The position numbers and the translations under genes were made by a program. From Flavobacteriaceae bacterium (GTDB lineage: Bacteria > Bacteroidota > Bacteroidia > Flavobacteriales > Flavobacteriaceae), in contig CBDFHN010000002.1 in the NCBI GenBank assembly GCA_965247735.1, positions 2,463,005 to 2,527,004 on the forward strand: 64,000 nucleotides of DNA, written 5' to 3'. Positions 21,531 to 39,985 of the stretch are shown piece after piece; positions within the stretch are counted from its first letter, which is position 1, and the number at the start of each line of letters is the position of its first letter. The notes under the pieces were generated by a model. It had not been told where the DNA came from, did no database searches, and worked only from the letters and a program-made list of their open reading frames with translations.

Positions 21531-21963
21531 AAATCATTGATCTAATTGATTGCCAAAAATAGTAAAAAGGATTTACCCAATAAGCAAAAATCAATTAAAA
21601 GACTTTTTCTTATGCTGTTTTTGGTTATCATTTTAGAACCGCTTATTGCCAGTTTTCGGTAGACTGCCATCAAGATCATTCTTACCTATAACGCGAATAC
21701 TTCTTTTACCTATTATATTTTCTCTTTTTTTTCCGAAGCTATTCGCGCTATCCACTGTAGTTTTTGAGGTAAACACCTCAAAAAGCTGCCGCTGCTATCA
21801 CGGCTAAAATGTTGAAATAGTATTGAGAATTTAGGTTTTAGTATTGATACCAAAAACACTTTCACAATATATAGTCAAACTATAACAACAACAGCCCCAA
21901 ACACAACATCTATTTTTCTTACTTTAGCTAACACACTAGTTTTGAAAACAAACGATAGTTATT

Positions 21964-23361
21964 ATGAAAATCCACACCCTATTCAATCCTAGATACAAAA
22001 TTGTTATTCACGCTCTAATCCTAATTGGATATTTAGCCATCATAATCCCTACATTTTTTTTAACTGAAACAAAAATTAGCAGCTTTATAACATCAGTAAG
22101 CTTAGAACTTATTTCCTTATACATATTAGCATTATGGATAATACCTCAACTTATTTCAAATACAAAAAAAGGAATCTTACTACTCTTTGGTTTTCTAATC
22201 ATATACTTTAATCCTTATACATTTTTTAAAAACTACAACAACCTTAATTTCTTAGAAGAGATACACAACCTTTTTACTCAAATTACCCCAATAGCCATAA
22301 TGTCATTTTTTTATAGCATTATTATTTTTGACTCAGAAAAACTAAAACCATTATTCTTAAACAAAAAATTCGAAATTCTTATTCACACACTAATCATAGC
22401 CCTAATAACTGCTTTTACCTTTAGTCCAAGCATAAACATGGGCAAAATATTTTTCACAGCAATCCCAGTTTACGCCTGCGCAATCTTCTACTATATTCAT
22501 ACTTTTCTTTTACTTCCAACGCTAATAACCCATAAAAAAAACTACAAATACACTGTTTACCTTACCATATGTCTTATTACATACTACGGAAGCATTATCT
22601 ATTTTTCAAAAAACACTTCCGATTTCCACAATCAACCCCTATATCTATTTATCAAAAATAACTTCCATTCCACTACCATTGTACTCATCGCAATATTAAT
22701 TCCATCCTACCTATACGGATACAAAAGAGCAAAATCCAAAAAAGAACAAAACATGCTTACTACACAACTAGCAGCTAAAAACACAGAGCTTCAATTGCTA
22801 AAATCACAAGTAAACCCTCATTTCTTATTCAACTCGCTCAATACATTGTACGCAACTGCTCTTAACGAAAAAGCAGATAAAACCGCGGAAAGCATTACAA
22901 ATTTAGCTAGCCTTATTAGGTACATGCAAGAAGACATTAACAAAAATCTCATCGTTTTAGACACAGAAATTCAATACATTAAAGACTATATTAGCATTCA
23001 AGAACTCCGTTGTAAAACCCCTCCTAACATCACCACAAATTTCAAAAACATCAAAAACCATACAATAAGTCCAGGAATATTGATGCCATTTATTGAAAAC
23101 GCGTTTAAATACGGAATAAACCCCAACAAAAATTCATCTTTAGATATCTCTATTATCGGAAAAGAAAAAACAATACTATTTGAATGCACTAATACTTTTA
23201 ACAAAAACAAAGTTTACCACCAAGAACAAGGTTTCGGAATCGGAATTAAAAACACCAAACAACGCCTGAATCTTATCTACCCTAATACTCACCAACTAGA
23301 CATCTCTAACGAAAATGGTGTTTTCAAAATATCACTTAACATAAATATTACAAAATCATGA
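21964..23361 (+). CDS. LytS/YehU-type sensor histidine kinase (multi-TM N-terminus, His_kinase domain)
   Basis: NPHFLFNSLNTLY H-box typical of the LytS family. ~6 TM helices upstream of it. Confidence 0.85.
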   Translation: MKIHTLFNPRYKIVIHALILIGYLAIIIPTFFLTETKISSFITSVSLELISLYILALWIIPQLISNTKKGILLLFGFLIIYFNPYTFFKNYNNLNFLEEIHNLFTQITPIAIMSFFYSIIIFDSEKLKPLFLNKKFEILIHTLIIALITAFTFSPSINMGKIFFTAIPVYACAIFYYIHTFLLLPTLITHKKNYKYTVYLTICLITYYGSIIYFSKNTSDFHNQPLYLFIKNNFHSTTIVLIAILIPSYLYGYKRAKSKKEQNMLTTQLAAKNTELQLLKSQVNPHFLFNSLNTLYATALNEKADKTAESITNLASLIRYMQEDINKNLIVLDTEIQYIKDYISIQELRCKTPPNITTNFKNIKNHTISPGILMPFIENAFKYGINPNKNSSLDISIIGKEKTILFECTNTFNKNKVYHQEQGFGIGIKNTKQRLNLIYPNTHQLDISNENGVFKISLNINITKS

Positions 23362-24041
23362 TGATAAACGCAATAGCCATAGATGACGAACCTAAAGCTA
23401 TAGAAGTAATACAACATCTTATCAACCGTATTGATTACCTTTCTTTAATTCATCATTTTCACAACTCAGAAGACGCCATCACTTTTTTAAACGAACAACC
23501 TGTAGATTTAGTTTTCTTAGACATTAACATGCCTGAAAAATCGGGATTGGACTTATTAAAAGAAATAGATCGTCCTGTAAACATTATTTTTACCACTGCC
23601 TATACAGAACACGCCCTCGAAAGCTATAACTACAACGCAATAGACTACCTCTTAAAACCTTTTTCCTTTAGCCGATTTTTGTCCGCAATAGAAAAAGCAA
23701 GAAATAAAATTAAAAGTAAACAACTCTCTCAACCATTTTTCTTTATTAAAGATGGATTTAAAAACATAAAAATAACTTTTAAAGACATCCTTTTCATTAA
23801 AGGATCAGGAAACTATTTAGAAATACACACTGTAGGTAAAATTCATATTTCAAGAATGACATTTAAAAACATTATTGAAAAAATACCTGCTGCTGACTTT
23901 ATTAGAACTCATCAATCATACCTCGTTAATACACAACACATAGATAAGATTGAAAACAACAAAATACACATCAACACAACCAGAATTCCCATAAGTGAAA
24001 AATATAAAAACACCCTTTACAAAAAACTAAATCTAACATAA
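23358..24041 (+). CDS. LytTR-family response regulator
   Basis: N-terminal receiver domain (DDEP...FLDINMP...) and a C-terminal LytTR DNA-binding domain. Overlaps the kinase gene by 4 nt. Confidence 0.9.
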   Translation: MMINAIAIDDEPKAIEVIQHLINRIDYLSLIHHFHNSEDAITFLNEQPVDLVFLDINMPEKSGLDLLKEIDRPVNIIFTTAYTEHALESYNYNAIDYLLKPFSFSRFLSAIEKARNKIKSKQLSQPFFFIKDGFKNIKITFKDILFIKGSGNYLEIHTVGKIHISRMTFKNIIEKIPAADFIRTHQSYLVNTQHIDKIENNKIHINTTRIPISEKYKNTLYKKLNLT

Positions 24042-24127: not shown

Positions 24128-25402
24128 ATGACAACAGTAGACTTAAAAAACATTGAATGGAATAGTATCGAAAAATTTACTTTTCGATTCCTATTCGTAT
24201 ATTACTTTTTTATCATATTCCCTTTTCCTTTCGGAAAAATGCCTTTTAATATTGGACTTGTTATTTTTGATTGGATCACTAAGTTTTGGGAAATTACCAC
24301 ACCTCTATTTGGTAAATATATCTTACAACTTTCCAGTGACGCTAATGTAACAACTTATGCCTCTAGTGACACACATTTTCATTATGCTTTGCTAATATTT
24401 CAACCCTTTTTAGCACTAGTAATTGCAACATTATGGACAGCAATTGACAGAAAAAGAAAGCAGTACAAAAAACTATACCTATATCTAATAACCGCACTAC
24501 GATACTACCTTGCTATAACCATGATTTCTTATGGCTTTTCCAAAATATTCCCTTCTCAGTTTGGAATCATGCAACAAACAACATATTTAACAACATACGG
24601 AGACAGTAGCCCCATGAACATGTTATGGGCTTTTATGAGCCACTCTACCAATTACCAACAATTTGGCGGGTATCTAGAGCTCATAGGAGGACTATTACTA
24701 CTACACAGAAAAACATACATTCTTGGCGCAATTAGTTCTTTTGGCGTAATGCTAAATGTATTTGCACTTAACCTAGCTTTTAATGTTTGGGTAAAATTAT
24801 ATTCTGGAAGCCTACTACTAATGAGTATTGTTATTATTACGCCTGAACTTAAAAAACTCGTTAAACTCTTTGTTTTCAATAAATCCGTTAGTTTTTCTTC
24901 TATTCAACCCTATTTTAAAGAAAAAAAATGGAATAGAGTTGCACTAGCTATAAAAATAGTATTTATCATAACCATTTTAATAAGCAAAACACAAGACCAT
25001 ATTAAACGTAGCAAAAACGTTACCTCGGCAACACCGCTTTTTGGCATTCAAAACGTACAACAATTTTCACTCAACAAAAACACCACACTTTCTTCTGCCA
25101 AAGATAGCATCCGATGGAAACACCTTTTAATAGACAAACGATCTGGTATCATTATTACCATGGACGATAAAAAGCATCGTTTTGCCCAAAAAATTGATAC
25201 CCTAAAAAAAACCATAACCTTTGAAAGCTATAGAGACAGCACCAATAACTACAAGTTTAACTACACAAAAACTGGCGACCTCTTAAAACTTAGCGGAATT
25301 CACAGAAGTGATACGCTAAATATTATCCTTAAAGAAAAAAAGAAAAACGAATTTAAGTTAGAAAAAGAAAGATTTAACTGGGTAACAGATTTCTTTTTCT
25401 AA
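24128..25402 (+). CDS. Multi-pass membrane protein (DoxX/HTTM-like N-terminal domain plus a C-terminal soluble domain). Possible target of the LytS/LytTR system.
   Basis: 424 aa. ~6-7 hydrophobic helices followed by a ~150-aa hydrophilic tail. Same strand, 86 nt downstream of the response regulator. Confidence 0.4.
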   Translation: MTTVDLKNIEWNSIEKFTFRFLFVYYFFIIFPFPFGKMPFNIGLVIFDWITKFWEITTPLFGKYILQLSSDANVTTYASSDTHFHYALLIFQPFLALVIATLWTAIDRKRKQYKKLYLYLITALRYYLAITMISYGFSKIFPSQFGIMQQTTYLTTYGDSSPMNMLWAFMSHSTNYQQFGGYLELIGGLLLLHRKTYILGAISSFGVMLNVFALNLAFNVWVKLYSGSLLLMSIVIITPELKKLVKLFVFNKSVSFSSIQPYFKEKKWNRVALAIKIVFIITILISKTQDHIKRSKNVTSATPLFGIQNVQQFSLNKNTTLSSAKDSIRWKHLLIDKRSGIIITMDDKKHRFAQKIDTLKKTITFESYRDSTNNYKFNYTKTGDLLKLSGIHRSDTLNIILKEKKKNEFKLEKERFNWVTDFFF

Positions 25403-25479: not shown

Positions 25480-28400
25480 CTACTTCTCTAACCCTCTTTT
25501 CAATACTTCTTGAATCCCTTCTAAGTGCTCGCTAAATTGTATCATCTGAGACAATATCTGTCCCATATCATTTTTATTTCCTAATCCTTTTAGCTTGTTA
25601 TTTTTTATAAATGTGGTTTTTATAACATCCCAACGCTCTTGCTCTGTTATGGTCAACACATCCGAAAGTTCTTTATACTTTAAAAGATTGGCTTCAGCGG
25701 CACTTGTTAATGTCTGAGATTCATTATTATAATGCGATTGCAATACGGTTTCTAATTCTTCATCATTCATTACCGTTACTACTTTACTCACCAACTTATT
25801 CATATCCCTATACGAACCTTGTAGCTTAAAAGACGGTTCTGTCCTATCAGCATCTTCCATTGCTGCCGATTTTATATAATTAGCATTTACCAGCATTACT
25901 CGATCTCGTATGGTAATCACCTTTTTCAACACCGAAATATAATCCTCTACCTCCTGCTTAGCGTAATTACCTTTTAACTCTATTCCTTCTCTTGTTCCTG
26001 ATGCTACCATATTGATAAAACCATAAATATCCTCAAAATACTTGCTGCTCAACTGATGCAACACTGGATTGGAAGTCAAAGAATTCTCAATTAAACTCAA
26101 CTTAAATAAATCGGCAGTATCGCCAATAATATCTCCTAAATTATAAATATCAGCACGATTGGCTAACATATCTGGAATCTGAAATTTATCTCCGCTTTCG
26201 GTATATGGATTCCCTGCCATAATAACACAGAACTTCTTAGACTTAAAGTCGTATGTCTTTGGCCTTCCATTATATACTCCTTCAATTTTTCGTGTCCCAT
26301 CAGCAAGAGAAATAAATTTCTGCAAAAACTCTGGATTACAATGCTGAATATCATCTAAATACAACATCACATTATTTCCCATTTCAAAAGCTAAATTCAG
26401 CTTTTTTAACTCTTCTCTAGTAGCTGCATTTTTTGCCGCCATAGGATCAACAGATGTTACTTCGTGCCCAATAGCTGGTCCATTTATTTTCATAAACACC
26501 AAGCCTAATCTATTGGCCAAATACTCCATTAATGTAGTTTTTCCATACCCGGGAGGGGAGACCAACAACAACATCCCCATACGGTCCGTACGCTTGGTTT
26601 CACCAACACTTCCCAATTGCTTGGATAAATTATCACCAAACAATGGCAAATACACCTGGTCTATTAACTTATTACGAACAAAAGAAGACAATACTCTTGG
26701 CATAAACTCATTAAGACGTAATTCCTCTTTAAGGGTATCCGTAACCTTATGCTTCGCCTCTTTGTATGCTAAATACGCAGGTACTTCTACCTCCACAAAT
26801 AAAGACATCTCTACTATAAACTGATGATAATTAAAACTAAAACTGCTTTCAATTATAGTATTGTGACTGCCATTCAATTTGTTTATCTCTTGAGAAGGCG
26901 ATATGTTTTTTACTTCAAAAACCACATGTTCTCTAAATAAAAGCAAGGAAATAATTTCATATAAATACTGTTCTTTTTCTGGTGCATTAACCTCCAGATA
27001 AGAACTTACCCATTGCTTTAATAAGCCAATTTTTGCCCCTAAATTTATTGCTGACTCTAAATGAGTTTCTAATTTTACAAATACTTTATTTTTTTTAAGT
27101 GACTTTACAAAAGCCTCAAATTGTTCTTGTGCTACTGAGCTCACACAAAAAGTATTATCAACACTCAATTCTACAAATAAATATTCAGCAGCCAAGGCAA
27201 CTTCATCCTCAGAAAACACCTCTATTCCAAAAAACATATCTTCTAAAACAGGCTTCATCTCTAATAACATTTTGCCAATTAGCTGCTCATAAGCCATGCT
27301 TTTGGGATACATTTTTAAGACCTCTCCTGAGGCTTTTATATTTGCATTCCATGTTGCCTTATTTCCGTTTTGCAGGTTATTCCAAAAACAGATGGCCAAC
27401 GCTCTTATTTTTGCCGAAAAACGCAACAAGCCCAAATCATGATGTTTTTCTATCAAAACCTTTAACACTTGTACTGCATCTACATCATGAACCCCCTTTA
27501 CATAACCTTCAGAATACAACTTGCTGCTTTCCTCTTTTACAAGAGCCAATATGCTTTCTTGATTTAGGTTGCGCAACTCTTCCCCATCAAACTTTTTAAA
27601 TATTTTATAAGCTAGATAATTAGCACGATAGATTTTATCATTTTCAGAAACCAATTCTTGATCCCAATATTTTTGAGAAGACACTAGGGTTTCATCTACT
27701 ATTTTTTGATAAAAATCGGTTCCGGTAAGGTGATAATACAACTCTTCATCTTTATAAACTATGGTTAAATCTAAAGGCTGCTTGTTTACTCCAAATTTAT
27801 GTTTCCCTAACTTTATTATATTCTCCCCATCTTCATATAAATCTTGTCGATCTTTTAACTTCCGAATAGCATCTTCCTTGGCAGATTTTAGTTGAGTTTC
27901 TATCATTTCTGCCTTTCCACCATCATCTAAATCCTGCAATTGAGAAACAATATCTCTAAGCTTACTTATCATTAAATCAGCAGCAAAATACCCATTAATA
28001 TCCACTGTTGAATCAAAACTTAAAGCCTTAGTTCCTACTCCTTTTAATATTCTTTTAGCAGCTTTCTCTAGGGCTACTGCTTTTTTGTTTCGCCCTTCAA
28101 CAATACTGTTTTTACGAGCTTCAAAAGCATTATATACTTCCTCTCGTTTTTCAATAATCTGCACAATAAAGTCTTCAAAATCGGCAAATCTAGCTTCTAA
28201 TTCTTCTAACTGGATTGAGACTTTATTAAGTAACTCTTCCGTTTTTTCAGGAGTATCAGAAATATCCAAATAATTGATAATACTCTGATCTACCAATTTT
28301 AATTGTGCAGCAAACTCTGCAGTAGCTTCTTTTCCCCCTAATGATTTGATGCTGTTTTTGATCCCTGCCTTCAACTGGTTTATTGTTGCGAAAATCAAAG

Positions 28401-30360
28401 AAATATTGTCAATAATCTTGGTGGATTGTGAGGTGTCTTCAATTTTTAAATTGGATACAATCTCTATCAGCATTTCTAGATCCACAACCACTTGGTTAAC
28501 CTCTGTTTCTAGCTTTTTAGCATCAATAACCTTTGTTATATCTGCAAGTTCTTTTTCTTTTGCTATTACTCTTGTTTGATAAGGCACCAAAGCCTTATCA
28601 TCTAATAAAAACTGTACACAACGCTCTGATATCTTATCGTTTTGGGCTGTAATTTGTACTTCTATATCTTCTATAAAAGCAGTATCTACATACCGAATCT
28701 CGTTTAATCCAATAACTTCTCCTCTTAAGGTACGCAATTGCGATAATACACCCACAAAATCATCAATAGTCCTAAAAGAAGTGCTATTTATTTTTCCAAA
28801 AAGCGCTGTACTCTTGTCTGCAACTTCATTAGTGATATTTGATGCCGTTTTTCTAAGCTGAACTACCTTTTCGAACTCATCTATTGCCGCATTAGCAGCA
28901 TTATTAATTTCTTGCAACGGAAGTACTAACTCCTGAGTCTCTGATTCCCGAATCCAATAATAACTATCAATTACATCTAAAGACTGCTTTGCAACATCAT
29001 CATACAAACCATCATAATTATCTTCTTTATTCAATAATGTAATTAGCCCTTGACATTCCGCCATCGCTTTTACAATATCCTTATTTCCGATTTTATATAA
29101 TAACGAATCTTTATGTTCCGATGGCAATACATCTGCTTTTACAAAAGGGGTTTGCCAAATTTGAATTACATGGTGTTTTGTTTGTTCTTCTTCAGTTTTA
29201 AAATAACACAATTCTCCTCCTTCCAAAAAGGTAAATCCATTGCAAATAATTGGTGTTTTTACCTCTTGAGAGATTACATTATAGGACATTAGAATATTGA
29301 TTCCTTTTTCTGCATGATAAAAAACATAGATATAATCTTCTCCATTAGGAGATACTATTTTTTTCTGAAAATTAAGATTAGAAATACCATGATCAAAAAG
29401 CTTAAATGTACCTGATTGCAGATAATATCCATTTGGATAAATTATACCTTGGTCGTCTGGAAGTAAAATAGCAGCATCACCAATACTTTGTATTTTTTTT
29501 ATTTCTTGAATTTTATGATTGTAGACAAAATAACGTGATGTTTCTTGAAATGGTTTGATTTCTAAAACGATTAGATTTCCTAAATCAGCATAACGATATT
29601 GGCCGTCATCTAAGGTCTGATCTACATGTGTTACCGCTTCACTAAAAACCCCTTTTCCATCGTCTGTATTGTCTTCTATTTTGATAGTTAAATCCCCACC
29701 TACAGTTTCAACAAATACTTTATCAAGAATAGAAATATGAGGATGGGTTCCATATCGATGCATATCTCTACTAACTTCTTTCCAATTAAAATCGTACTGA
29801 TTTGGATAACGAAATTCATTTTCGCTTCTATTATCAACATATTTTAAACCATCGTCTGTAATCAACCATTTGAAGGTCTTAATATCGGTAACACTATCAC
29901 TTAATTGAAAAACCAAGTGCAAATAATTACCAATTACAGCAAACTTTGAGAATATAGTATTCCTATAATACTTATATAGATTTGTAAAATCAGAAATAAA
30001 GATCTCGTCTTGAAACAGGGCTAAAGATTGTGTTGTAAAATGATCTCCATCATATTTACATACTTCAAACACATCGGATAACAGTATCTCTGTTCGCAAT
30101 CCAAAATGCACATTATAGCCAAAAATACAGAGGTTATTAATAGTTATAATATCTCTTGCGATACAACTACTTTTGGTATTGATTCTATTATTGGCAATTA
30201 ACTTAGTTTCTACGCTTCCAAAAACAGTTGCTCTCGCCAAATTTAGCTTCCCTAGTCGATCTTGCAACTCTACTTTTTGTTTCTGCAAGCGCCCTTGGAT
30301 AATCTCATAAGTACCTCCATCGAGCTGAACAACATTCTTCGACATTTCTTTATCCTGCAT
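25480..30360 (-). CDS. 1626-aa multidomain protein with a C-terminal MoxR/dynein-like AAA_5-type ATPase domain. Function unknown.
   Basis: Walker A VSPPGYGKTTLMEY, Walker B MLYLDDIQHC, sensor-like VIMAGNPYTE, and ANRADIY resembling the MoxR xLLDRF motif, all within the last ~400 aa. The N-terminal ~1100 aa have no motif I can assign. Same strand and immediately downstream of the flotillin/PspA cluster. Confidence 0.55.
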   Translation of the reverse strand: MQDKEMSKNVVQLDGGTYEIIQGRLQKQKVELQDRLGKLNLARATVFGSVETKLIANNRINTKSSCIARDIITINNLCIFGYNVHFGLRTEILLSDVFEVCKYDGDHFTTQSLALFQDEIFISDFTNLYKYYRNTIFSKFAVIGNYLHLVFQLSDSVTDIKTFKWLITDDGLKYVDNRSENEFRYPNQYDFNWKEVSRDMHRYGTHPHISILDKVFVETVGGDLTIKIEDNTDDGKGVFSEAVTHVDQTLDDGQYRYADLGNLIVLEIKPFQETSRYFVYNHKIQEIKKIQSIGDAAILLPDDQGIIYPNGYYLQSGTFKLFDHGISNLNFQKKIVSPNGEDYIYVFYHAEKGINILMSYNVISQEVKTPIICNGFTFLEGGELCYFKTEEEQTKHHVIQIWQTPFVKADVLPSEHKDSLLYKIGNKDIVKAMAECQGLITLLNKEDNYDGLYDDVAKQSLDVIDSYYWIRESETQELVLPLQEINNAANAAIDEFEKVVQLRKTASNITNEVADKSTALFGKINSTSFRTIDDFVGVLSQLRTLRGEVIGLNEIRYVDTAFIEDIEVQITAQNDKISERCVQFLLDDKALVPYQTRVIAKEKELADITKVIDAKKLETEVNQVVVDLEMLIEIVSNLKIEDTSQSTKIIDNISLIFATINQLKAGIKNSIKSLGGKEATAEFAAQLKLVDQSIINYLDISDTPEKTEELLNKVSIQLEELEARFADFEDFIVQIIEKREEVYNAFEARKNSIVEGRNKKAVALEKAAKRILKGVGTKALSFDSTVDINGYFAADLMISKLRDIVSQLQDLDDGGKAEMIETQLKSAKEDAIRKLKDRQDLYEDGENIIKLGKHKFGVNKQPLDLTIVYKDEELYYHLTGTDFYQKIVDETLVSSQKYWDQELVSENDKIYRANYLAYKIFKKFDGEELRNLNQESILALVKEESSKLYSEGYVKGVHDVDAVQVLKVLIEKHHDLGLLRFSAKIRALAICFWNNLQNGNKATWNANIKASGEVLKMYPKSMAYEQLIGKMLLEMKPVLEDMFFGIEVFSEDEVALAAEYLFVELSVDNTFCVSSVAQEQFEAFVKSLKKNKVFVKLETHLESAINLGAKIGLLKQWVSSYLEVNAPEKEQYLYEIISLLLFREHVVFEVKNISPSQEINKLNGSHNTIIESSFSFNYHQFIVEMSLFVEVEVPAYLAYKEAKHKVTDTLKEELRLNEFMPRVLSSFVRNKLIDQVYLPLFGDNLSKQLGSVGETKRTDRMGMLLLVSPPGYGKTTLMEYLANRLGLVFMKINGPAIGHEVTSVDPMAAKNAATREELKKLNLAFEMGNNVMLYLDDIQHCNPEFLQKFISLADGTRKIEGVYNGRPKTYDFKSKKFCVIMAGNPYTESGDKFQIPDMLANRADIYNLGDIIGDTADLFKLSLIENSLTSNPVLHQLSSKYFEDIYGFINMVASGTREGIELKGNYAKQEVEDYISVLKKVITIRDRVMLVNANYIKSAAMEDADRTEPSFKLQGSYRDMNKLVSKVVTVMNDEELETVLQSHYNNESQTLTSAAEANLLKYKELSDVLTITEQERWDVIKTTFIKNNKLKGLGNKNDMGQILSQMIQFSEHLEGIQEVLKRGLEK

Positions 30361-30384
30361 TTATCTTTATTGTTTTTTAAAAAC

Positions 30385-30443
30385 TTGTTCTCGATACTAT
30401 TTCACTTCCGTTTCTCTTTGGCAAAATCACTCGAACTGACATT
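30385..30443. repeat. ~59-nt intergenic repeat, copy A (TTGTTCTCGATACTATTTCAC...GGCAAAATCACTCGAACTGACA)
   Basis: One of three near-identical copies within 600 nt. Confidence 0.85.
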
Positions 30444-30547
30444 CAATTCCTCATCAACTATACACACTACAACTCAACTGTCACATCGAGTGAATTTGAA
30501 TAATGCAATGGAGCAAATTTGTATCGAGATGTTTCACTTACCCAATC

Positions 30548-30604
30548 CTGTTCTCGATACTATTTCACCTTCGCTACTCTTTGGCAAAATCACGAACTGA
30601 CAAG
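30548..30604. repeat. ~57-nt intergenic repeat, copy B. Abuts the stop of the GIY-YIG gene.
   Basis: CTGTTCTCGATACTATTTCACCTTCGCTACTCTTTGGCAAAATCACGAACTGACA. Confidence 0.85.
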
Positions 30605-30608
30605 ACAG

Positions 30609-30899
30609 TTACTTAAAATTCTTCTTCGCTAAATTTACTAAACTTTCATAATCGCCATTTATCAAAGCAATTTTCTTCGCTCTTGACCACTTTTTTATCT
30701 GCTTTTCTTTCTCAATAGCTACCTCAACATTTGTAAACTCGCAATAAAAAACTAACTCAACCGGTCTTCGCCTAAATGTATAGCTCTCCTTATGTTTTCC
30801 TTTTTGATGTTCAACCATCCTCATTTCCATTCGAGAAGTAACACCTGTATAAAAAGTATTATCTGAGCATCTTAATATGTATACATAATAAATTTTCAT
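30609..30899 (-). CDS. GIY-YIG nuclease-superfamily small protein (stand-alone, ~96 aa)
   Basis: KIYYVYILRCSDNTFYTGVTSRMEMRMVEHQ is the GIY..YIG core with the conserved R and E. Flanked on both sides by the 59-nt repeats. Confidence 0.85.
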   Translation of the reverse strand: MKIYYVYILRCSDNTFYTGVTSRMEMRMVEHQKGKHKESYTFRRRPVELVFYCEFTNVEVAIEKEKQIKKWSRAKKIALINGDYESLVNLAKKNFK

Positions 30900-30903
30900 T
30901 TCA

Positions 30904-30963
30904 TTGTTCTCGATACTATTTCACCTACGCTTCTCTTCGGTAAAATCACTCGAACTGACATTT
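30904..30963. repeat. ~60-nt intergenic repeat, copy C. Begins 5 nt upstream of the GIY-YIG start and abuts the flotillin stop.
   Basis: TTGTTCTCGATACTATTTCACCTACGCTTCTCTTCGGTAAAATCACTCGAACTGACA. Confidence 0.85.
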
Positions 30964-30965
30964 AA

Positions 30966-33035
30966 CTAACTAATCTTCTTATCTCCCATCCCTAATCCAT
31001 TAGCAAGGTTTAGGAGATTTGTAAATAAGTTGTTTTCGTCTGCACTTGTTGTTTTCTGCTTCAAATCCATTAAAATATTGGCAATGCTTAAGTTTTTGAT
31101 ATCTTCAGATGATACACCATACTTATCAGCAAACTCCTTTACTTTTCCAAGCAAGTTTCCTTTTACATCTTCACTTCCCAAAATAGCATCTTTTACCTCT
31201 TGAACAGTATCTGAATGCTTCACCAATCTATCATATCCTTTGGCTTTAGTAATCTGCCCAATTATCTGATCGAAGAACATTGTTTCTCCACCAACAATAT
31301 CAATATTAGAAGCCCTAAGCGCTTCTCCAATTACCTGTGCCTGTGCATCTGCGATATCTTTTTGGATATTGATTTCTGCTAAATCTACTTGTAATTCTTT
31401 TTCTAATCGCAATTTAAATTCTTCATGTTCTTTTCCAACACCATTTAGCTTCTTCATTGCTTCAGCCTTTTCTTCTATTCCTGCTGCATCTGCCAGCGCT
31501 TTTTCTTTAATCACTTCTGCTTCTGCTATTCCTTCTTTCTTAAGCGCTGCTGCTCTTGCTTCTATTCCTGCCGCCTCAGCTTTTGCTTTCTTCTCTATAA
31601 TTAAAGCCTCAACTATACCTTCTCTTTCTACAGCATCCGCTTTTGCATGCATTACTTGCGCTTCTGACATTCCCACAGTTGCCTCTTCTTTTGCCTGAGC
31701 TTCTGCTAATATTTTTCTAGCTTCTGCTTCTTTTTCACTTGCTTGCTTTTTAGCTAAAGCTTCTATATTAATTTCCTCGGCTTGTTGTTTTGCAGCTTCT
31801 TTTTGTGCTTCTGCTGATTTAATTACTCTAACCAACGCTTGCTCTGCTTCACCTTCTGCTACTGTAATTTTCACCTGCTTATCACGATCTGCAGTTTTAA
31901 AAGCCTCAATATCTTTCATACTCTCTCGCTCTTCTACCACACCTTTCTCTAACATTACACGATCGCGAATAACATCTTGAATATTTTTCTTTTCTACTTC
32001 TACAACCTTTTCTTTCTCTATTTGTGCTAGTGTTACAATTCGTTCTCTTTCGGTAGCCTCCAACATTCTGTCTTTTTCAACTCTTTCGGTTTCTACAACA
32101 TCGGTACGTTCTTTATTTTTTGATGCTACAATAACCTGACGTTGCTTATTTTCTTCAGCTACTTGCAATTTTTCCTCTGTTGCTATTCTTGCCGTTTCAG
32201 ATTTAAGACGCTCTTCTTCTCCCACTTTTAGTATTTCTGCCTCTTCCCTAGACATAATATTAGCAATCTCCCTCTTCTGCTGCTCTTCTTTTTCCGCTAA
32301 CTGCTTGTCCAATTCTAATATAGCTTCTCTTGCCTCAACATCCTGCTTACGGATTATTTTTTCTTCGTCTCTTTTAATTAAATTTGACTTTACATTCTGA
32401 GCTGCAGTTAATTCTGTAATCTTCTTTATCCCTTCTGCATCCAATATATTATCGGCCTTTAAAAACGATACTGGTGTCTGCTCTAAATAATCAATAGCAC
32501 AATCTTCTAACGTATAACCATTAAGATCTGTACCTATAATATCTACAATCTCGTCTCTAAACTCGCGCCTAGCCTCATACAATTCTATAAATTGGAATTT
32601 TTTCCCAACAGTCTTTAATGCTTCCGAAAATTTGGCTTCAAACAACTCCTCTAATGTAGTATGGTGTGATGCTCTTTCGCAACCAATAGTTTGAGCTACT
32701 TTTTTAATAAATTCCACTTCATTATTAACACGAACAAAAAAGGCAACCTTAATATCTGCTCTCATGTTATCCTTACACACCAAACCATCATTACCTAGCC
32801 GTTCTATCTGAATTTTCTTTACAGAAATATCCATAATCTCTACCCGATGAAATACTGGAACCACATACATTCCTCTATCTGTTGCCACTTTTGTACCCTT
32901 AAAACCGGTACGCACCAAAGCTTGACCTTGAGGTACCTTTTTATAGAACATTGCAACTATTGCAAAGTATAAAATGATTAAGAAAAGGAGCAATCCAATA
33001 CCCATTCCTACTATTTGAAGTAAACTATCTGCCAT
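30966..33035 (-). CDS. Flotillin-family (SPFH/band 7) membrane-microdomain protein with a long C-terminal coiled-coil (YqiK-like)
   Basis: N-terminal TM helix, an SPFH domain (VPQGQALVRTGFKGTKV...), and an EA/KE-rich repeat coiled-coil. Confidence 0.85.
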   Translation of the reverse strand: MADSLLQIVGMGIGLLLFLIILYFAIVAMFYKKVPQGQALVRTGFKGTKVATDRGMYVVPVFHRVEIMDISVKKIQIERLGNDGLVCKDNMRADIKVAFFVRVNNEVEFIKKVAQTIGCERASHHTTLEELFEAKFSEALKTVGKKFQFIELYEARREFRDEIVDIIGTDLNGYTLEDCAIDYLEQTPVSFLKADNILDAEGIKKITELTAAQNVKSNLIKRDEEKIIRKQDVEAREAILELDKQLAEKEEQQKREIANIMSREEAEILKVGEEERLKSETARIATEEKLQVAEENKQRQVIVASKNKERTDVVETERVEKDRMLEATERERIVTLAQIEKEKVVEVEKKNIQDVIRDRVMLEKGVVEERESMKDIEAFKTADRDKQVKITVAEGEAEQALVRVIKSAEAQKEAAKQQAEEINIEALAKKQASEKEAEARKILAEAQAKEEATVGMSEAQVMHAKADAVEREGIVEALIIEKKAKAEAAGIEARAAALKKEGIAEAEVIKEKALADAAGIEEKAEAMKKLNGVGKEHEEFKLRLEKELQVDLAEINIQKDIADAQAQVIGEALRASNIDIVGGETMFFDQIIGQITKAKGYDRLVKHSDTVQEVKDAILGSEDVKGNLLGKVKEFADKYGVSSEDIKNLSIANILMDLKQKTTSADENNLFTNLLNLANGLGMGDKKIS

Positions 33036-33050
33036 ATTATTTGTGTTTAT

Positions 33051-33767
33051 TTATTTGTGTTTTTGTGCGTAATAAAACGCCTTATCACTACTCTGTTTTA
33101 TAATTAGTATTTCATCTTTATACGCTATTTGCTCTCCATCATAAGACTTAATGTATATTGACAGATTATTTCCTTCAGCAACCACTTCTGCCGACCCCAT
33201 TTTTTCCTTACTGATAGTAGACAACGAAAGCCCTCTTCTGCCCACAATATCTATTGGCTCATCTCCATCTTGATTCAAATTTTTAAAGAAACTTTTAAAT
33301 GGAGTAGTAAATATTTTGGTAATAATTAGAGACGGTATAATACCAACCAACATTAATACAAAACCAAAACTATTGTTATAACTTAAAGTCAATACTGTAC
33401 TTACTGTGGTACATATCCACCAGATAAAAATCCAACTTGTAAACGTAAACATAAAAGGCAATCCTACAAAATTGAAGTAAATAAGTATTACTTGCCACCA
33501 TTTTAATGGCTTTTTCCTATACTCTCCAACTACGTCTTCTTTATTAATTTCTGCATTGGCTATATCATGAAAATCAACATTGCCACCCTCAATACCCATA
33601 TCTACATCTGCATCGATATCTACATCAATGTCCACATCAACATCAAAATCTAAGTCAAAATCAATTCCTGAAAACATGGTAACAATCCAGTACAGGATTA
33701 GGATAATCACCAATAGTGTTAAGGTAATATTTACTGTTGAAAAAATTATGTCTATAATGGAATCCAA
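33051..33767 (-). CDS. YqiJ/NfeD-like inner-membrane protein (flotillin partner) with an acidic DxD repeat tract
   Basis: TM helices, a C-terminal beta-rich (OB-like) domain, and the positional equivalent of E. coli yqiJ upstream of yqiK. Low-complexity DFDLDFDVDVDIDVDIDADVD region. Confidence 0.55.
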   Translation of the reverse strand: MDSIIDIIFSTVNITLTLLVIILILYWIVTMFSGIDFDLDFDVDVDIDVDIDADVDMGIEGGNVDFHDIANAEINKEDVVGEYRKKPLKWWQVILIYFNFVGLPFMFTFTSWIFIWWICTTVSTVLTLSYNNSFGFVLMLVGIIPSLIITKIFTTPFKSFFKNLNQDGDEPIDIVGRRGLSLSTISKEKMGSAEVVAEGNNLSIYIKSYDGEQIAYKDEILIIKQSSDKAFYYAQKHK

Positions 33768-33770
33768 TTC

Positions 33771-34487
33771 TTATTCTTTTTTATCTTGATTAAACCCTAA
33801 TTGTTCTTTTAATTTTGCCAACTCATCTTCGGCAGTTGTATCGGTAATATCGACAGCATTGTCTATTTCTTGATCTATACTTTTAGACGCATCGGCAATA
33901 TCACCATAAGCCTCAGCCAAAGCTTCTTCCTGACTTACCTTGTCCTTCATTCTTTCTAGCATGGCAACAGTACTTGAACTATCAATTTCTGCCATTTGCT
34001 TATTCAAGTCCTTGGTTGCTTTAGACACTTTTACTCTTGCCTTAAGTGTTTTTAATTCACTTTCCCATTTGCTAATATTCTTTTTTACCTCTGCAATATT
34101 TTTGTCCAATTTGGCAATAGAATCCTCAAACTTAGTTTCATTTTCTTTTGCCAGTACCACATGTTTTTGATTTTCTTCCTTTTTAATCAATGCTTCTTTG
34201 GCCAAACGATCTGCTTCTGGGCTATCCAGAGCTCCACTATGTCCTTTTTTTAATATCAACATTGCTTTTTGTTGATAATCTTCAGCTTTTGCAGAAAATT
34301 CTTCTACCTCATTTTTTGCCCGTATTGCAAGTGCCTTTACCTGAGCTAAAGATTCTAAGCTTTTATTTAAATCGCCTTTCATATCTCTAATGCCTTGTTC
34401 GGTCATCTTAATTGGGTCTTCCATACCATCTACAGTTGCATGCGCCTCTGCTTGTCCTATTTTAAACAATCTTTTGAAAAAATTCAT
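33771..34487 (-). CDS. pspA: PspA/IM30 (Vipp1/ESCRT-III-like) family protein
   Basis: 238 aa, all-helical coiled-coil. N-terminal MNFFKRLFKIGQAEAHATVDGMEDPIKMTEQGIRDMKGDL is typical of PspA. Confidence 0.85.
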   Translation of the reverse strand: MNFFKRLFKIGQAEAHATVDGMEDPIKMTEQGIRDMKGDLNKSLESLAQVKALAIRAKNEVEEFSAKAEDYQQKAMLILKKGHSGALDSPEADRLAKEALIKKEENQKHVVLAKENETKFEDSIAKLDKNIAEVKKNISKWESELKTLKARVKVSKATKDLNKQMAEIDSSSTVAMLERMKDKVSQEEALAEAYGDIADASKSIDQEIDNAVDITDTTAEDELAKLKEQLGFNQDKKE

Positions 34488-34491
34488 CCTA

Positions 34492-34887
34492 CTAATATTT
34501 TGAAAAATTTATAATTTGCTCCGAATATTCGCTCAACAACAATCCAAGCGAGTTAAGCGAAGCTTCTAACTCGTTAAGGTCTAAATGCTCTACTTGTAAT
34601 GTATCTCTAAAAATAACTTTTCTACCAGAAGCGTCTAAAACAAATGCCCCATGCACAATATCTCTATTTTTTTGAAGTAAACTTCTAAATACATCTTCAC
34701 TTTTATTACGGATATCAAAAATGTGTTGTTCCATAATTAAAATGGGAGAAGCTACTCCTATAATTAAATTCTTAATTCCTTCACTTTCTCTGCTAATCAT
34801 TAACACTCCATCCGCAACATTCTCATAAGTAATATCATATTGAAGTTGCATTACATACTCCTTAACCATCTTAAAATGTGCTTCCAT
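34492..34887 (-). CDS. YbjN-like small cytoplasmic protein (putative sensory/chaperone-like). First gene of the PspA-flotillin operon.
   Basis: 131 aa. Weak resemblance to YbjN-domain proteins. The 4-nt spacing to pspA suggests co-transcription. Confidence 0.35.
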   Translation of the reverse strand: MEAHFKMVKEYVMQLQYDITYENVADGVLMISRESEGIKNLIIGVASPILIMEQHIFDIRNKSEDVFRSLLQKNRDIVHGAFVLDASGRKVIFRDTLQVEHLDLNELEASLNSLGLLLSEYSEQIINFSKY

Positions 34888-35037
34888 AAATCGTAAACGT
34901 TATATTTTGATTATTATTTTCGTTATTGACACTATCAATATTACAAAACTTACACTAAACTCAGCACTAATTTAAACACAAAAGCTATGATAATATATAT
35001 TACATGGATCATTTTTATATTGGAGTTAATTTAGTCT

Positions 35038-35060
35038 AATTGCTAAAATTTTTAGCAATT
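35038..35060. promoter_or_regulatory. Perfect 11+1+11 palindrome AATTGCTAAAA-T-TTTTAGCAATT. Candidate operator for the adjacent XRE/S24 repressor. Related TTAGCAA/TTAGCTAA half-sites lie at 35111 and 35178..35190.
   Basis: Seen directly in the divergent promoter region between the YbjN-like and XRE genes. Confidence 0.4.
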
Positions 35061-35194
35061 ATTACTTTTTGTGCCAAAAAAAGTAGCTGATTAATAAAAA
35101 TCTATTTATATTAGCTAAACACAAATGCAATAACTAATATTATTAGCGTAAATATACAAATAAAATCTTTAATTGCAAATTAAATTAGCAAAAT

Positions 35195-35953
35195 ATGTCG
35201 TTTTTCGGAAAAAACATCAAAAAAATAAGACACGTTAAAGGATTAAGCCAACAGGCTTTCGCAGAGCTATTTGAGCTAAAAAGAGGTACTCTTGGGGCTT
35301 ACGAAGAAGGAAGAAGTGAACCAAAAATAGAAACTATCATTAAAATTGCTAATTATTTTAGCATTAAAATTGACAATCTGCTTACTAATGACATCACCGT
35401 TAATCAATTATTAAAATTTAAAGGCGATCTAACTACTTATGCTGAAAATGCAAGTACCATACAGTTTTCCAAAATACCATGCATTAACGAAAACAACCTA
35501 AACGAATACCTACTTTCACACAAAAACCCTGAATACATAACCGAGTTACCTTATTTGCAGCTTCCATTAAATCTTACTAAAAACTTTAGGGCATATACTG
35601 TTAGTAGTTTAGAAATGACCAAACACGATAGTGGTTTTTATCCAAAAGACATTGTAATTGGAGAAGAAGTGCCCAATAACATTATAAAAAAACTAACAAA
35701 TGGTACTCTTGTTTTTGCTCTTGTAAACAACAGTATTATTTTTAGAAGACTATATATTACTGGAAATACTATTATACTAAGAGCAGATCATAAAAATATT
35801 GAAGATGAAACATTTCCAATTAAAGAACTAAAAGAATTATGGCGTGTGCGCTATGTGTTCTGTAAACGTATTCCTGAATTTGGAAATGATTATAATGACA
35901 AGCTACAAAACATTGAAATTGAATTACAAAAGATCAAAAATCAAATCAATTAA
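35195..35953 (+). CDS. XRE-family HTH transcriptional regulator with a C-terminal LexA/CI-like S24 peptidase domain
   Basis: N-terminal HTH_3 (IKKIRHVKGLSQQAFAELFELKRGTLGAYEEGRSEPKIETIIKIANYF). C-terminal region with S24-like topology (VSSLEM ... IIFRRLYITGNTIILRADHKN). Confidence 0.7.
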   Translation: MSFFGKNIKKIRHVKGLSQQAFAELFELKRGTLGAYEEGRSEPKIETIIKIANYFSIKIDNLLTNDITVNQLLKFKGDLTTYAENASTIQFSKIPCINENNLNEYLLSHKNPEYITELPYLQLPLNLTKNFRAYTVSSLEMTKHDSGFYPKDIVIGEEVPNNIIKKLTNGTLVFALVNNSIIFRRLYITGNTIILRADHKNIEDETFPIKELKELWRVRYVFCKRIPEFGNDYNDKLQNIEIELQKIKNQIN

Positions 35954-37273: not shown

Positions 37274-39985
37274 ATGTTGAACAATTATATTTCGTACTTT
37301 ACTGATTGCTACAAAGCAGACAATAGGGCATTTTCTATTTTAAATTTCTTTTCTTCCAAATACGAAAGCCAACTTATTATTAAACAAAAAGAAGAACTTG
37401 TTAATGATGAACTTCCTTTTCAGTATTTACCGATAGAAATTGGTAAATCTATTCAGCAAAATTTAGAACTTTACAACCATGACAAAGAGCTTTTGTATTG
37501 CTCTTTATTTTTTATCGGCAAAAGAAAAAATTTCCAAAGCCGTATTACAAATATCATTGCTCCGTTATTTTACTACCACGCAGAAGTTATAACCCATGAT
37601 GATCTGCCTTTTGTAAAACTAAATCTTGAAAAAGAAAGAACGCTAAACATTGCCTTTTTAAAAACACTCTCCTACAAGACAAACTTTAATGTTTTTTATA
37701 ATGAACTAGAAGAACTTCTTATAAAACATCCTTGTATTAACAATGACTTTATCCTCTCACTAAAAGAACTACTAGAATTTCATATCGATAATCTAAAAAC
37801 GCAAATACTAGATTTTCCAAAACTAAAATCTGCTTCTTTTCTAAAAAAGAACGCAACAGAAACAATCGAAATAGAACAGTTTGAACTACATTCCGCATCA
37901 GGAGTTTTAATCTCAAGCAAAGCTAACAATATCAACGGAGTTGTTAATGAGTTAAATATCCTTAGCCATGAAAACAATCTTTCTACAGGGCTTAACTATT
38001 TTTTCTCTAAAGAAAAGGAAATTCCAAATTTCTCTAAGACTGATTTTAAGATCCCAGCATTACTAAATGTGGCACAAGAACATATTGTTTACAACGCCAA
38101 CTCTTATTATAAATCTGTTATTTTTGGCCCATCAGGAACTGGTAAATCTTATACAATATCTGCAATTGCTCAAGATTATATTAGCAAAGGAAAAAGTGTA
38201 CTCATAGTTACCAAAACCAGTCAAGCCCTAAATGTCTTAGAGGAGAAATTGAATGCCTTCAAAATAGGTCAATTTGCAGTAAAAATTGGAGGTGATTACT
38301 ACAAAAGAAGTATCAAGAGCTATTTAAACAAAATTGCGAATGGTTTTTTTCATAAGAAGTATTCTGCTAGTAAACATCAAATCATAAGAAAGCAATACCA
38401 TGAACTTTATGATAAAATAACAGCTTTTGAGAAACAATTCAATCAAAAAATAATAAAAGAAGGCAAACGGGTCGAAAGCATCTTTGACAAAAGCTTCTTT
38501 TCAAAAATCACAAATAGCATAGATCTCATTTTTTTTAGATCCTTTGAGCAAAAAGAATGGGAAATTATTGAAGAATACTATCAGCTACTTCAAGATTTTG
38601 AAAAAACAGCTGATGCCTTTTTATTTCAATCAGTTCTTAGCGATATTGTTAAACATGCTAATGAAAACAGGCTTGAGCTCTTAAAACTTGTTAATGTTTT
38701 TGAAAGTAAAGACAAAGCGGAAGCAAACAATCAACTAAGAACAATAAACCCAAAACTCCTCGTAAAATTTCTTCCGTTATGGCTAGTAAAAATTGATGAG
38801 ATATCTAATGCAATCCCCTTAAAAAAAGAACTCTATGATATTGCTATTGTTGACGAAGCAACGCAATGTGATATTGCATCTTGTTTGCCTGTTTTCCAAA
38901 GAGCAAAAAAAGTAATTGTAGCCGGTGACACCAACCAACTTAGGCACATTAGCTTTCTGTCTAAAACACAAATGTTTAACTTTCAGAAAAAGCATAAATT
39001 AACAACTAATAATAATTTTGACTATAGAAAAAATAGTCTGTTAGATTTCATTTTAGCAAACACCCCAGATGGCAAACAAGTAGTTCTTCTTGATGAACAT
39101 TATAGATCGCTTCCTGAAATCATAAATTTTAGCAATAAGCAATTTTATCATAATTCTTTACGGATTATGACTGATATTCCAAAAAACAAAAACAAACGAG
39201 CCGTTTTTATTAAAAAAATCAAAGGAAAGCAACTAAACTCTGGTACTAATGAGCATGAAGCCAAACAGATATTAAAAAAAGTAAAACAGATTATTTCAAA
39301 AGAAGAATCATTTACAAAAAAACAAGCCAGCACTATAGGAGTTCTCTCTCCTTTTAGACAACAAACAGATTATTTAACAAAACTTATAAAACAAGAGCTA
39401 AACCTTAACCAAATAAAAAAACACAAATTAAGACTAGGTACTCCATACCATTTTCAAGGTGAAGAAAAAGACTATATGTTTATCTCAATGACAGTTGATA
39501 ACAATTCTCATTTTGCTAGTCTTAATTACCTTAACAAAACTGATGTTTTTAATGTAGCCATTACTAGAGCAAAACACGAACAACATGTTTTTATATCAGT
39601 AGACACAAAACTACTAAACCATAACTCTTTGCTTAGGATATTCCTAGAAACCTACAGCGACACAGATACATCATGCAACTCACTCCCAATACAAGATAAA
39701 TTTAGCAAAGAAGTTATCGCCTTTTTAACCACAAAAAAAGTCAATATTCATCCAGGCTATCATATTGCAGGTCTATCTATTGATATTCTTATAGAAAAGG
39801 AAGGCAAATATTTAGGAATTGATCTTATTGGTTATCCCGGTGATTTCAAAGCTGCTTTTTCTATAGAACGCTATAAAATTCTGAATAGAGTAGGTATAGA
39901 AATACTTCCGATCTCATATATATCTTGGGAACACCAAAAAGAAGTCATCATCCAAAAACTAGAAAATAAAATATTCTTCCTCTAA
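37274..39985 (+). CDS. Superfamily-1 Upf1/DNA2-like helicase (AAA_11/AAA_12) with a DUF4011-like N-terminal domain and a C-terminal restriction-endonuclease-like (DUF559/Vsr-like) domain
   Basis: Walker A GPSGTGKSYTISAIA, motif II IVDEATQC, VIVAGDTNQL, and a C-terminal helicase domain GTPYHFQGEEKDYMFISMTV. The last ~90 aa resemble REase-like DUF559. Confidence 0.8.
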   Translation: MLNNYISYFTDCYKADNRAFSILNFFSSKYESQLIIKQKEELVNDELPFQYLPIEIGKSIQQNLELYNHDKELLYCSLFFIGKRKNFQSRITNIIAPLFYYHAEVITHDDLPFVKLNLEKERTLNIAFLKTLSYKTNFNVFYNELEELLIKHPCINNDFILSLKELLEFHIDNLKTQILDFPKLKSASFLKKNATETIEIEQFELHSASGVLISSKANNINGVVNELNILSHENNLSTGLNYFFSKEKEIPNFSKTDFKIPALLNVAQEHIVYNANSYYKSVIFGPSGTGKSYTISAIAQDYISKGKSVLIVTKTSQALNVLEEKLNAFKIGQFAVKIGGDYYKRSIKSYLNKIANGFFHKKYSASKHQIIRKQYHELYDKITAFEKQFNQKIIKEGKRVESIFDKSFFSKITNSIDLIFFRSFEQKEWEIIEEYYQLLQDFEKTADAFLFQSVLSDIVKHANENRLELLKLVNVFESKDKAEANNQLRTINPKLLVKFLPLWLVKIDEISNAIPLKKELYDIAIVDEATQCDIASCLPVFQRAKKVIVAGDTNQLRHISFLSKTQMFNFQKKHKLTTNNNFDYRKNSLLDFILANTPDGKQVVLLDEHYRSLPEIINFSNKQFYHNSLRIMTDIPKNKNKRAVFIKKIKGKQLNSGTNEHEAKQILKKVKQIISKEESFTKKQASTIGVLSPFRQQTDYLTKLIKQELNLNQIKKHKLRLGTPYHFQGEEKDYMFISMTVDNNSHFASLNYLNKTDVFNVAITRAKHEQHVFISVDTKLLNHNSLLRIFLETYSDTDTSCNSLPIQDKFSKEVIAFLTTKKVNIHPGYHIAGLSIDILIEKEGKYLGIDLIGYPGDFKAAFSIERYKILNRVGIEILPISYISWEHQKEVIIQKLENKIFFL

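Follow-up and report, generated by a model that had tools for sequence, protein, structure and literature searches.

In a 64,000-nt stretch of the genome of a Flavobacteriaceae bacterium (contig CBDFHN010000002.1, positions 2,463,005 to 2,527,004 of the forward strand; hereafter the window), positions 25480-34887 carry a minus-strand gene cluster that encodes a CesT/Tir-like chaperone, PspA, a YqiJ-like membrane protein, a YqiK-type flotillin and a giant soluble AAA+ ATPase. We found that the ATPase gene is a genuine, conserved member of this cluster and that its adjacency to the other genes is not incidental, since the order and strand of the flotillin and ATPase genes are kept in 69 of 72 loci from many phyla. 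Flotillin and YqiJ are its constant partners, to which PspA is an add-on, and the ATPase probably acts on the flotillin/YqiJ scaffold as an ATP-driven remodeller. The operon type is real and was already described in 2024, and the window adds no new kind of system to it. The genes of the cluster, listed in the direction of transcription, are as follows.

34492-34887, minus strand: CesT/Tir-like chaperone, 131 aa, the first gene of the operon (Pfam CesT_Tir_1, 8.4e-56, full length)
33771-34487, minus strand: PspA/IM30 protein (ESCRT-III superfamily), 238 aa (Pfam PspA_IM30, 6.8e-45)
33051-33767, minus strand: YqiJ/YuaF (NfeD-like) membrane protein, 238 aa, with three transmembrane (TM) segments and a C-terminal soluble domain (orthologue profile)
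30966-33035, minus strand: YqiK-type flotillin, 689 aa (orthologue profile against E. coli YqiK)
25480-30360, minus strand: giant soluble AAA+ protein, 1626 aa, DUF3686-DUF7902-AAA (Pfam; database name 'DNA repair ATPase')

The neighbourhood of the ATPase gene was compared across 88 loci with full-length homologues (33-73% identity), 8 of them taken from records of plasmids or chromids and the other 80 from contigs sampled at one genome per species. The open reading frames (ORFs) of these loci were searched by jackhmmer seeded with the window's proteins, and upstream genes were counted in those 72 loci, from at least 8 phyla, whose sequence extends 5 kb or more upstream of the ATPase gene. In 69 of the 72 loci the gene directly upstream, on the same strand, encoded a YqiK-type flotillin; a YqiJ-like gene was found upstream on the same strand in 68, a PspA gene in 37 and a CesT-like gene in 35. 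These counts indicate that the core is YqiJ-flotillin-ATPase. The distance between the flotillin and ATPase genes is often below 130 nt, and in Nonomuraea the flotillin stop codon overlaps the ATPase start. The phyla represented are Bacteroidota and Pseudomonadota together with Planctomycetota, Verrucomicrobiota, Kiritimatiellota, Omnitrophota, Desulfobacterota, Actinomycetota, Deinococcota and Bacillota; in these latter phyla (for Bacillota, in a metagenome-assembled genome), as well as in Proteus, Vibrio and Halomonas, only the YqiJ-flotillin-ATPase genes were present, without PspA. The loci with PspA or CesT-like genes are all from Bacteroidota except for the P. fluorescens plasmid pQBR103, on which a YjfI-PspA pair stands further upstream in a polyamine-type operon and YqiJ-flotillin-ATPase lies downstream. 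An earlier reading of the window, made from the sequence alone, had tentatively placed the ATPase with the PspA-flotillin operon and had proposed to give up the association if homologues never neighboured pspA or flotillin genes elsewhere. The survey bears out the association, and the co-occurrence holds for flotillin and does not extend to PspA as a general partner. As a separate observation, the YqiJ-flotillin-ATPase cluster also occurs on large plasmids of Pseudomonas, Hymenobacter, Streptomyces and Deinococcus (L001-L004).

The operon class to which the cluster belongs was reported by Ravi et al. 2024 (mSystems; PMC11237479, section 19 and Table S3) as CesT_Tir, PspA, YqiJ/YuaF, Band-7/flotillin and a beta-propeller + coiled-coil + AAA-ATPase protein, in that order. 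Their example is from Dokdonia donghaensis (ANH61663.1), for which the Table S3 row lists a divergent 'cHTH+Protease' gene, and shorter operons without PspA are more widespread according to the same paper (PMC11237479). The cluster in the window agrees with the Dokdonia operon in gene content, order, orientation, divergent regulator and family (Flavobacteriaceae), and its CesT/Tir-like gene stands directly upstream of PspA, 4 nt away, as in the published class; the following gaps, between PspA and YqiJ and between YqiJ and flotillin, are 3 and 15 nt in the window ORFs. The sole difference is an extra GIY-YIG gene with three 62-nt repeats in the window. The association is therefore already in print as a comparative-genomic observation. 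What is added here is the count that makes flotillin and YqiJ, and not PspA, the constant partners, the structural placement of the AAA+ module beside MoxR proteins, the DD Walker B motif throughout the family, and the finding that the slot between the flotillin and ATPase genes gathers unrelated insertions. For the assembly, opening and recycling of bacterial flotillin structures and PspA polymers, a conserved ATPase that many phyla encode together with flotillin and YqiJ is the obvious candidate motor. Public annotation mis-names the ATPase family 'DNA repair ATPase', and literature searches (DUF3686; 'DNA repair ATPase' with flotillin; MoxR with flotillin) returned no experimental study of it. 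The residual value of the system is that of a well-defined candidate flotillin-remodelling motor.

The identities of the smaller proteins were established by Pfam and by orthologue profiles. The first gene had been called YbjN-like in the sequence-only reading; the ORF was there, but the precise Pfam family is CesT_Tir_1, and the protein had no BLASTP similarity to E. coli YjfI. The PspA protein belongs to the PspA/IM30 family by a full-length match to PF04012 (153.8 bits against a cut-off of 33.9), whereas it falls far below the cut-off of TIGR02977, the NCBIfam PspA equivalog (64.9 bits against 243). With E. coli YjfJ it shares 23% identity (E 4e-7). The cluster is not a canonical Psp system of the kind in which an E. 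coli PspA equivalog is accompanied by PspF, PspB and PspC: PspB and PspC were not seen in the cluster, and the GAFTGA sigma-54 motif of PspF-type activators was absent from every frame of the window, in agreement with the earlier statement that no PspF is encoded there. The 238-aa TM protein and the 689-aa protein, taken alone, had no Pfam match even at E=10 and none in NCBIfam, and we therefore built orthologue alignments from related loci and compared the resulting profiles with the E. coli proteins using hhalign. The 689-aa family profile matched YqiK over 412 columns (probability 100, E 1.1e-40), and the flotillin matched QmcA at 7e-4. The protein consists of an N-terminal TM segment (residues 12-30 by hydropathy), an SPFH domain and a long Glu/Ala/Lys-rich coiled coil, and it has the membrane anchor, the SPFH/Band-7 domain and the C-terminal coiled coil homologous to YqiK that define a YqiK-type flotillin. 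Band_7 was matched by 4 of 25 orthologues and missed by the window protein itself, and the NCBI names of the orthologues are 'flotillin family' and 'SPFH domain-containing'. The 238-aa TM family profile matched E. coli YqiJ (probability 95.8, E 7.8e-9); YqiJ_N was found in 8 of 23 orthologues and NfeD in 2 of 23, and the match to YuaF (PDB 2k14) was weak (E 0.019). Its multi-TM N-terminal part (residues 7-25, 93-118 and 134-152), its C-terminal NfeD-type domain and the adjoining SPFH gene are those of a YqiJ/NfeD-like protein. The PspA, YqiJ/NfeD-like and flotillin assignments of the sequence-only reading are all confirmed by these results.

The ATPase, in which no TM segment was detected by hydropathy, is made up of three main regions.

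29152-30204, minus strand: residues 53-403, beta-rich propeller-like domain, the DUF3686 core
27838-29103, minus strand: residues 420-841, long helical rods and three-helix bundles, including DUF7902
25861-26688, minus strand: residues 1225-1500, MoxR-like AAA+ module

Pfam placed DUF3686 at residues 31-468 (5.5e-175) and DUF7902 at 589-672, which corrects the earlier claim that the N-terminal 1100 aa hold no assignable motif, and at residues 1264-1387 it gave weak matches to AAA_5 (7.6e-8) and AAA (2.9e-7) with about equal scores. DUF3686 is N-terminal in full-length matches of 1.6-1.9 kaa, with 668 cluster representatives at E<=1e-3, and the closest of the full-length homologues, which occur in many phyla, is from Aquimarina (73% identity). 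One further full-length homologue of 1711 aa (P0208) comes from a eukaryotic set ('eukprot') and could reflect contamination or horizontal transfer.

AlphaFold2 models were made from a 79-sequence alignment and reached a mean predicted local distance difference test score (pLDDT) of 86.0 for residues 1-880 and 86.5 for residues 841-1626. In the N-terminal part of the model a single helix precedes a domain of about 27 strands (53-403), and long, spectrin-like helical rods follow (420-841). Foldseek matched the beta domain to WD40 and other propellers at high probability, though the TM-scores were low (at most 0.43). The closest structural matches of the AAA+ fold were the MoxR proteins CbbQ and NorQ. 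The module has a Walker A motif (residues 1268-1275), a Walker B motif (1333-1340), the sensor-1 residue N1384, R1402 and a pre-sensor-1 beta-hairpin (1358-1371), the last of which is also present in the model, where the helix-2 position is occupied by a conserved loop and not by a hairpin. The Walker A (SPPGYGKTT) and Walker B (LYLDDIQ) motifs noted earlier are both present, and Walker A SPPGYGKTT, Walker B LYLDDIQH, the sensor-1 Asn and the Arg of 'NRAD' are each at least 95% conserved among 323 homologues. The Walker B motif is family-wide DD (at least 95% of the 323 homologues) and not the canonical hhhhDE. Sequence searches against the PDB, made with the profile and with the AAA domain alone, gave P-loop-region matches to RuvB, p97 and AFG2 and a weaker match to ClpE, over about 130 residues, and assigned no clade. 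The earlier label 'MoxR/AAA_5-type' thus probably holds at the level of the fold and does not extend to the DE Walker B motif or to the VWA/MIDAS partner that is typical of MoxR systems; Pfam found no VWA domain in the cluster proteins. The known MoxR ATPases (CbbQ, NorQ, RavA) are also much smaller, at about 270-500 aa compared with 1626 aa here, of which about 1200 aa are the N-terminal propeller and rods; they combine a DE Walker B with a VWA/MIDAS partner, in contrast to the DD motif and the lack of such a partner gene here.

Taken together, these data suggest that the cluster is one instance of a conserved gene set for membrane stress or membrane remodelling that joins two modules, and we give about even chances to a model in which the ATPase remodels the flotillin/YqiJ scaffold and the PspA module has been added in Bacteroidota. 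The first module, the widespread core, consists of the 3-TM YqiJ/NfeD-like protein, the YqiK-type flotillin and the giant soluble ATPase, and the second, found almost only in Bacteroidota, of the CesT/Tir-like chaperone, PspA and a divergent HTH/S24-like regulator. Held in the inner membrane by its N-terminal TM segment and paired with YqiJ, the flotillin may form an oligomeric cage or dome at the cytoplasmic face, and the cytosolic ATPase would dock on this structure through its propeller and rod arms. The ATPase could then use ATP to build up, open or take apart the flotillin scaffold, or to pull clients out of it, in a MoxR-style remodelling of complexes that would parallel the combination of an SPFH cage and an AAA+ machine in HflK/C-FtsH. 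In Bacteroidota, PspA may be recruited to the flotillin membrane patch for repair, with the CesT-like chaperone restraining it, and any action of the ATPase on PspA polymers would be a secondary, lineage-specific use. More tentatively, and with the balance somewhat against it, the DUF3686 ATPase may be a dedicated ATP-driven remodeller of cytoplasmic YqiK cages, and would then be the first AAA+ machine other than a protease to be assigned to an SPFH scaffold; in Bacteroidota it may also couple flotillin microdomains to PspA/ESCRT-III repair under the HTH/S24-like regulator.

Related systems share parts of this arrangement. The yqiJ-yqiK operon of E. coli has homologous YqiJ and YqiK genes in the same order, but neither the giant ATPase downstream nor PspA or CesT upstream. 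SPFH cages are paired with the AAA+ protease FtsH (PMC12048511; PMC11348225), and HflK/C-FtsH and prohibitin-m-AAA are like the present system in that a scaffold of the SPFH family is paired with an AAA+ protein (PMC12048511); FtsH, however, is a membrane-anchored protease of the classical AAA+ clade, whereas the ATPase here is soluble, MoxR-like and has no protease domain. In the B. subtilis ydjFGHI operon, PspA and an SPFH protein are encoded together, and the SPFH protein YdjI is needed for the localisation of PspA at the membrane (PMC8581546), although this operon has neither an AAA+ ATPase nor a CesT-like chaperone and has other membrane partners (YdjG/H).

Several points weigh against the remodelling of the flotillin/YqiJ scaffold by the ATPase. 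The proposed mechanism that links the ATPase to flotillin, YqiJ and PspA is drawn from gene context and fold, and the low TM-scores make the propeller match of the modelled beta domain weak. The DD Walker B motif suggests that hydrolysis may be slow or unusual, and Pfam found in the cluster no VWA/MIDAS partner. Three loci (L028, L058 and L061) have no adjoining flotillin gene despite ample upstream sequence, and in the window itself a 605-nt gap with an inserted gene separates the flotillin and ATPase genes, which makes their co-transcription in this genome putative.

The alternative with most in its favour builds on the sequence-only reading: the ATPase would be a dedicated motor for the disassembly or remodelling of PspA polymers, a bacterial analogue of Vps4, and flotillin and YqiJ would be only its membrane platform. 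PspA and the ATPase are indeed encoded in one co-oriented cluster in 37 of the 72 loci, and the CesT-like chaperone hints at regulated assembly of PspA. PspA is a member of the ESCRT-III superfamily, so that the cluster resembles Vps4/CdvC on ESCRT-III in having an AAA+ gene beside that of an ESCRT-III-superfamily protein, and ATP-driven polymer remodelling is conceivable. ATP-dependent remodelling has also been suggested for PspA-AAA+ associations in general (Ravi et al., PMC11237479). Nevertheless, about half of the loci, including all those outside Bacteroidota other than pQBR103, lack PspA, which speaks against a dedicated PspA partner, and the giant ATPase is not of the Vps4/CdvC type, a classical-clade AAA+ protein with an N-terminal MIT domain. 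We therefore regard this alternative as unlikely; a Vps4-like role of the ATPase on PspA is conceivable, but at most as a secondary one.

That the cluster is a mobile island for stress or anti-phage defence, with the ATPase as its sensor or effector, could be proposed from the homologous clusters on plasmids and megaplasmids (pQBR103 and the Hymenobacter, Streptomyces and Deinococcus replicons), from the variable cargo slot and from a nearby gene for a helicase with a restriction-endonuclease-like domain (37274-39985). Most loci are chromosomal, however, with vertical-looking conservation within families, and a PADLOC scan of the six proteins gave no significant match, only mad8 at E 0.005 in the P-loop region, which makes such an island highly improbable. 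The database name raises the further possibility that the ATPase acts in DNA repair, perhaps linked to SOS through a LexA-like regulator, with its membrane neighbours reflecting co-regulation and not a joint function. Pfam calls DUF3686 an 'ATPase involved in DNA repair', the PGAP name is 'DNA repair ATPase', the regulator in Hymenobacter is named 'LexA family', and there are weak P-loop matches to RuvB. Yet the similarity to RuvB covers only some 40 residues around the P-loop, neither a DNA-binding nor a nuclease domain was found, the constant neighbours are flotillin and YqiJ and not repair genes, the S24-like domain of the regulator has no residue conserved at the 97% level, and the literature search found no mention of DUF3686 and nothing that links 'DNA repair ATPase' with flotillin. 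The name thus appears to have no support from the domains or the gene context, and we consider a repair function extremely improbable. Finally, the suggestion that the association could be incidental, the ATPase gene being an independent transcription unit downstream of the PspA-flotillin operon and beyond a mobile GIY-YIG element, draws on the 605-nt gap with its inserted gene and repeats and on the variability of the slot in other genomes, but it is contradicted by the neighbourhood survey (69 of 72 loci, many phyla, gaps usually below 130 nt) and by the absence of a minus-strand terminator-like site between the two genes, and deserves next to no credence.

The slot between the flotillin and ATPase genes (30361-30965, 605 nt) holds the inserted GIY-YIG gene and its repeats.

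30904-30965, minus strand: 62-nt direct repeat, copy 1, upstream of the GIY-YIG gene
30609-30899, minus strand: stand-alone GIY-YIG nuclease-family ORF, 96 aa (Pfam GIY-YIG, 8e-17)
30548-30609, minus strand: 62-nt direct repeat, copy 2, abutting the GIY-YIG stop codon
30385-30446, minus strand: 62-nt direct repeat, copy 3, 25 nt upstream of the ATPase start codon

With this gene, all six minus-strand ORFs of the earlier reading were found where it had placed them. The three direct repeats bracket the GIY-YIG ORF, and shuffled sequence yields no such matches. The repeats have no Rfam match, even at E<=1, and no further copy occurs in the other loci or elsewhere in the window. A GIY-YIG gene is absent from the flotillin-ATPase slot of all 88 other loci, which upholds the earlier view of the element as an insertion between the operon and the ATPase gene. 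About 25 other loci have flotillin-ATPase gaps of 0.5-2.4 kb with mutually unrelated ORFs, among them a beta-lactamase-fold protein, an esterase, a DMP19-like protein, an M54-like peptidase, an IS200-like Y1 transposase and several ORFs without a family match (loci with cargo include L005, L006, L017, L022, L056, L066, L073 and L081). Insertions are therefore tolerated in the slot, which looks like a recurrent hot spot for them within an operon that is rigid elsewhere. The GIY-YIG gene and its repeats are the form that this takes in the present genome, a lineage-specific, unrelated insertion in a permissive intergenic position. Elsewhere in the window, a 17-nt stretch (21813-21829) resembles part of the 62-nt repeat (E 0.04), probably by chance. 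It lies just 5' of a Flavo-1 RNA (RF01705; 21737-21809, minus strand; 58.5 bits against a gathering score of 42), which is the sole Rfam match in the window.

Upstream of the CesT/Tir-like gene, a regulator is encoded divergently.

35195-35953, plus strand: divergent regulator, 252 aa, XRE-type helix-turn-helix (HTH) and peptidase-S24-like C-terminal domain (Pfam)
35037-35061, divergent intergenic region: perfect 12+1+12 palindrome TAATTGCTAAAA-A-TTTTAGCAATTA, candidate operator

The regulator matched HTH_3/HTH_19 at 1e-10 and Peptidase_S24 at 7e-4, below the cut-off, and its Hymenobacter orthologue matched Peptidase_S24 at 7.7e-7, above the cut-off. In 36 loci, namely all 35 CesT-PspA loci and L065, an orthologue is encoded divergently at a distance of 8-540 nt from the first gene of the operon, and the regulator probably controls the operon. 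In 37 sequences, residues conserved at the 97% level were confined to the HTH part, with none in the C-terminal domain, and a Ser/Lys dyad with LexA-like self-cleavage therefore appears to lack support. The palindrome may be an operator, but this is speculative; as such it is not conserved in other loci, several of which have TTTGCAAA-type palindromes instead.

A scan of the region for sigma-70 promoters and terminators gave signals that were not above those of shuffled sequence; in the same scan no minus-strand terminator-like site was seen between the flotillin and ATPase genes. The CesT, GIY-YIG and ATPase genes have no exact Bacteroidetes TAnnTTTG box upstream. Among the flanking genes, a 424-aa ORF (24128-25402, plus strand) is convergent with the ATPase gene; it matches no Pfam family above threshold and lacks a homologue in all of the collected loci. 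The gene at 37274-39985 (plus strand) encodes a 903-aa protein with an AAA_11/AAA_12 superfamily-1 helicase and a C-terminal MTES_1575 restriction-endonuclease-like domain, and is unrelated to the operon. A LytTR-type two-component pair, a His_kinase protein and a response regulator/LytTR protein, is encoded at 21964-24041 (plus strand). Such a pair is absent or more than 5 kb away in most loci, and it lies about 1.5-4 kb from the 3' end of the ATPase gene in the window, in L001 (14912-16631, a Hymenobacter plasmid) and in L071 (15720-17517).

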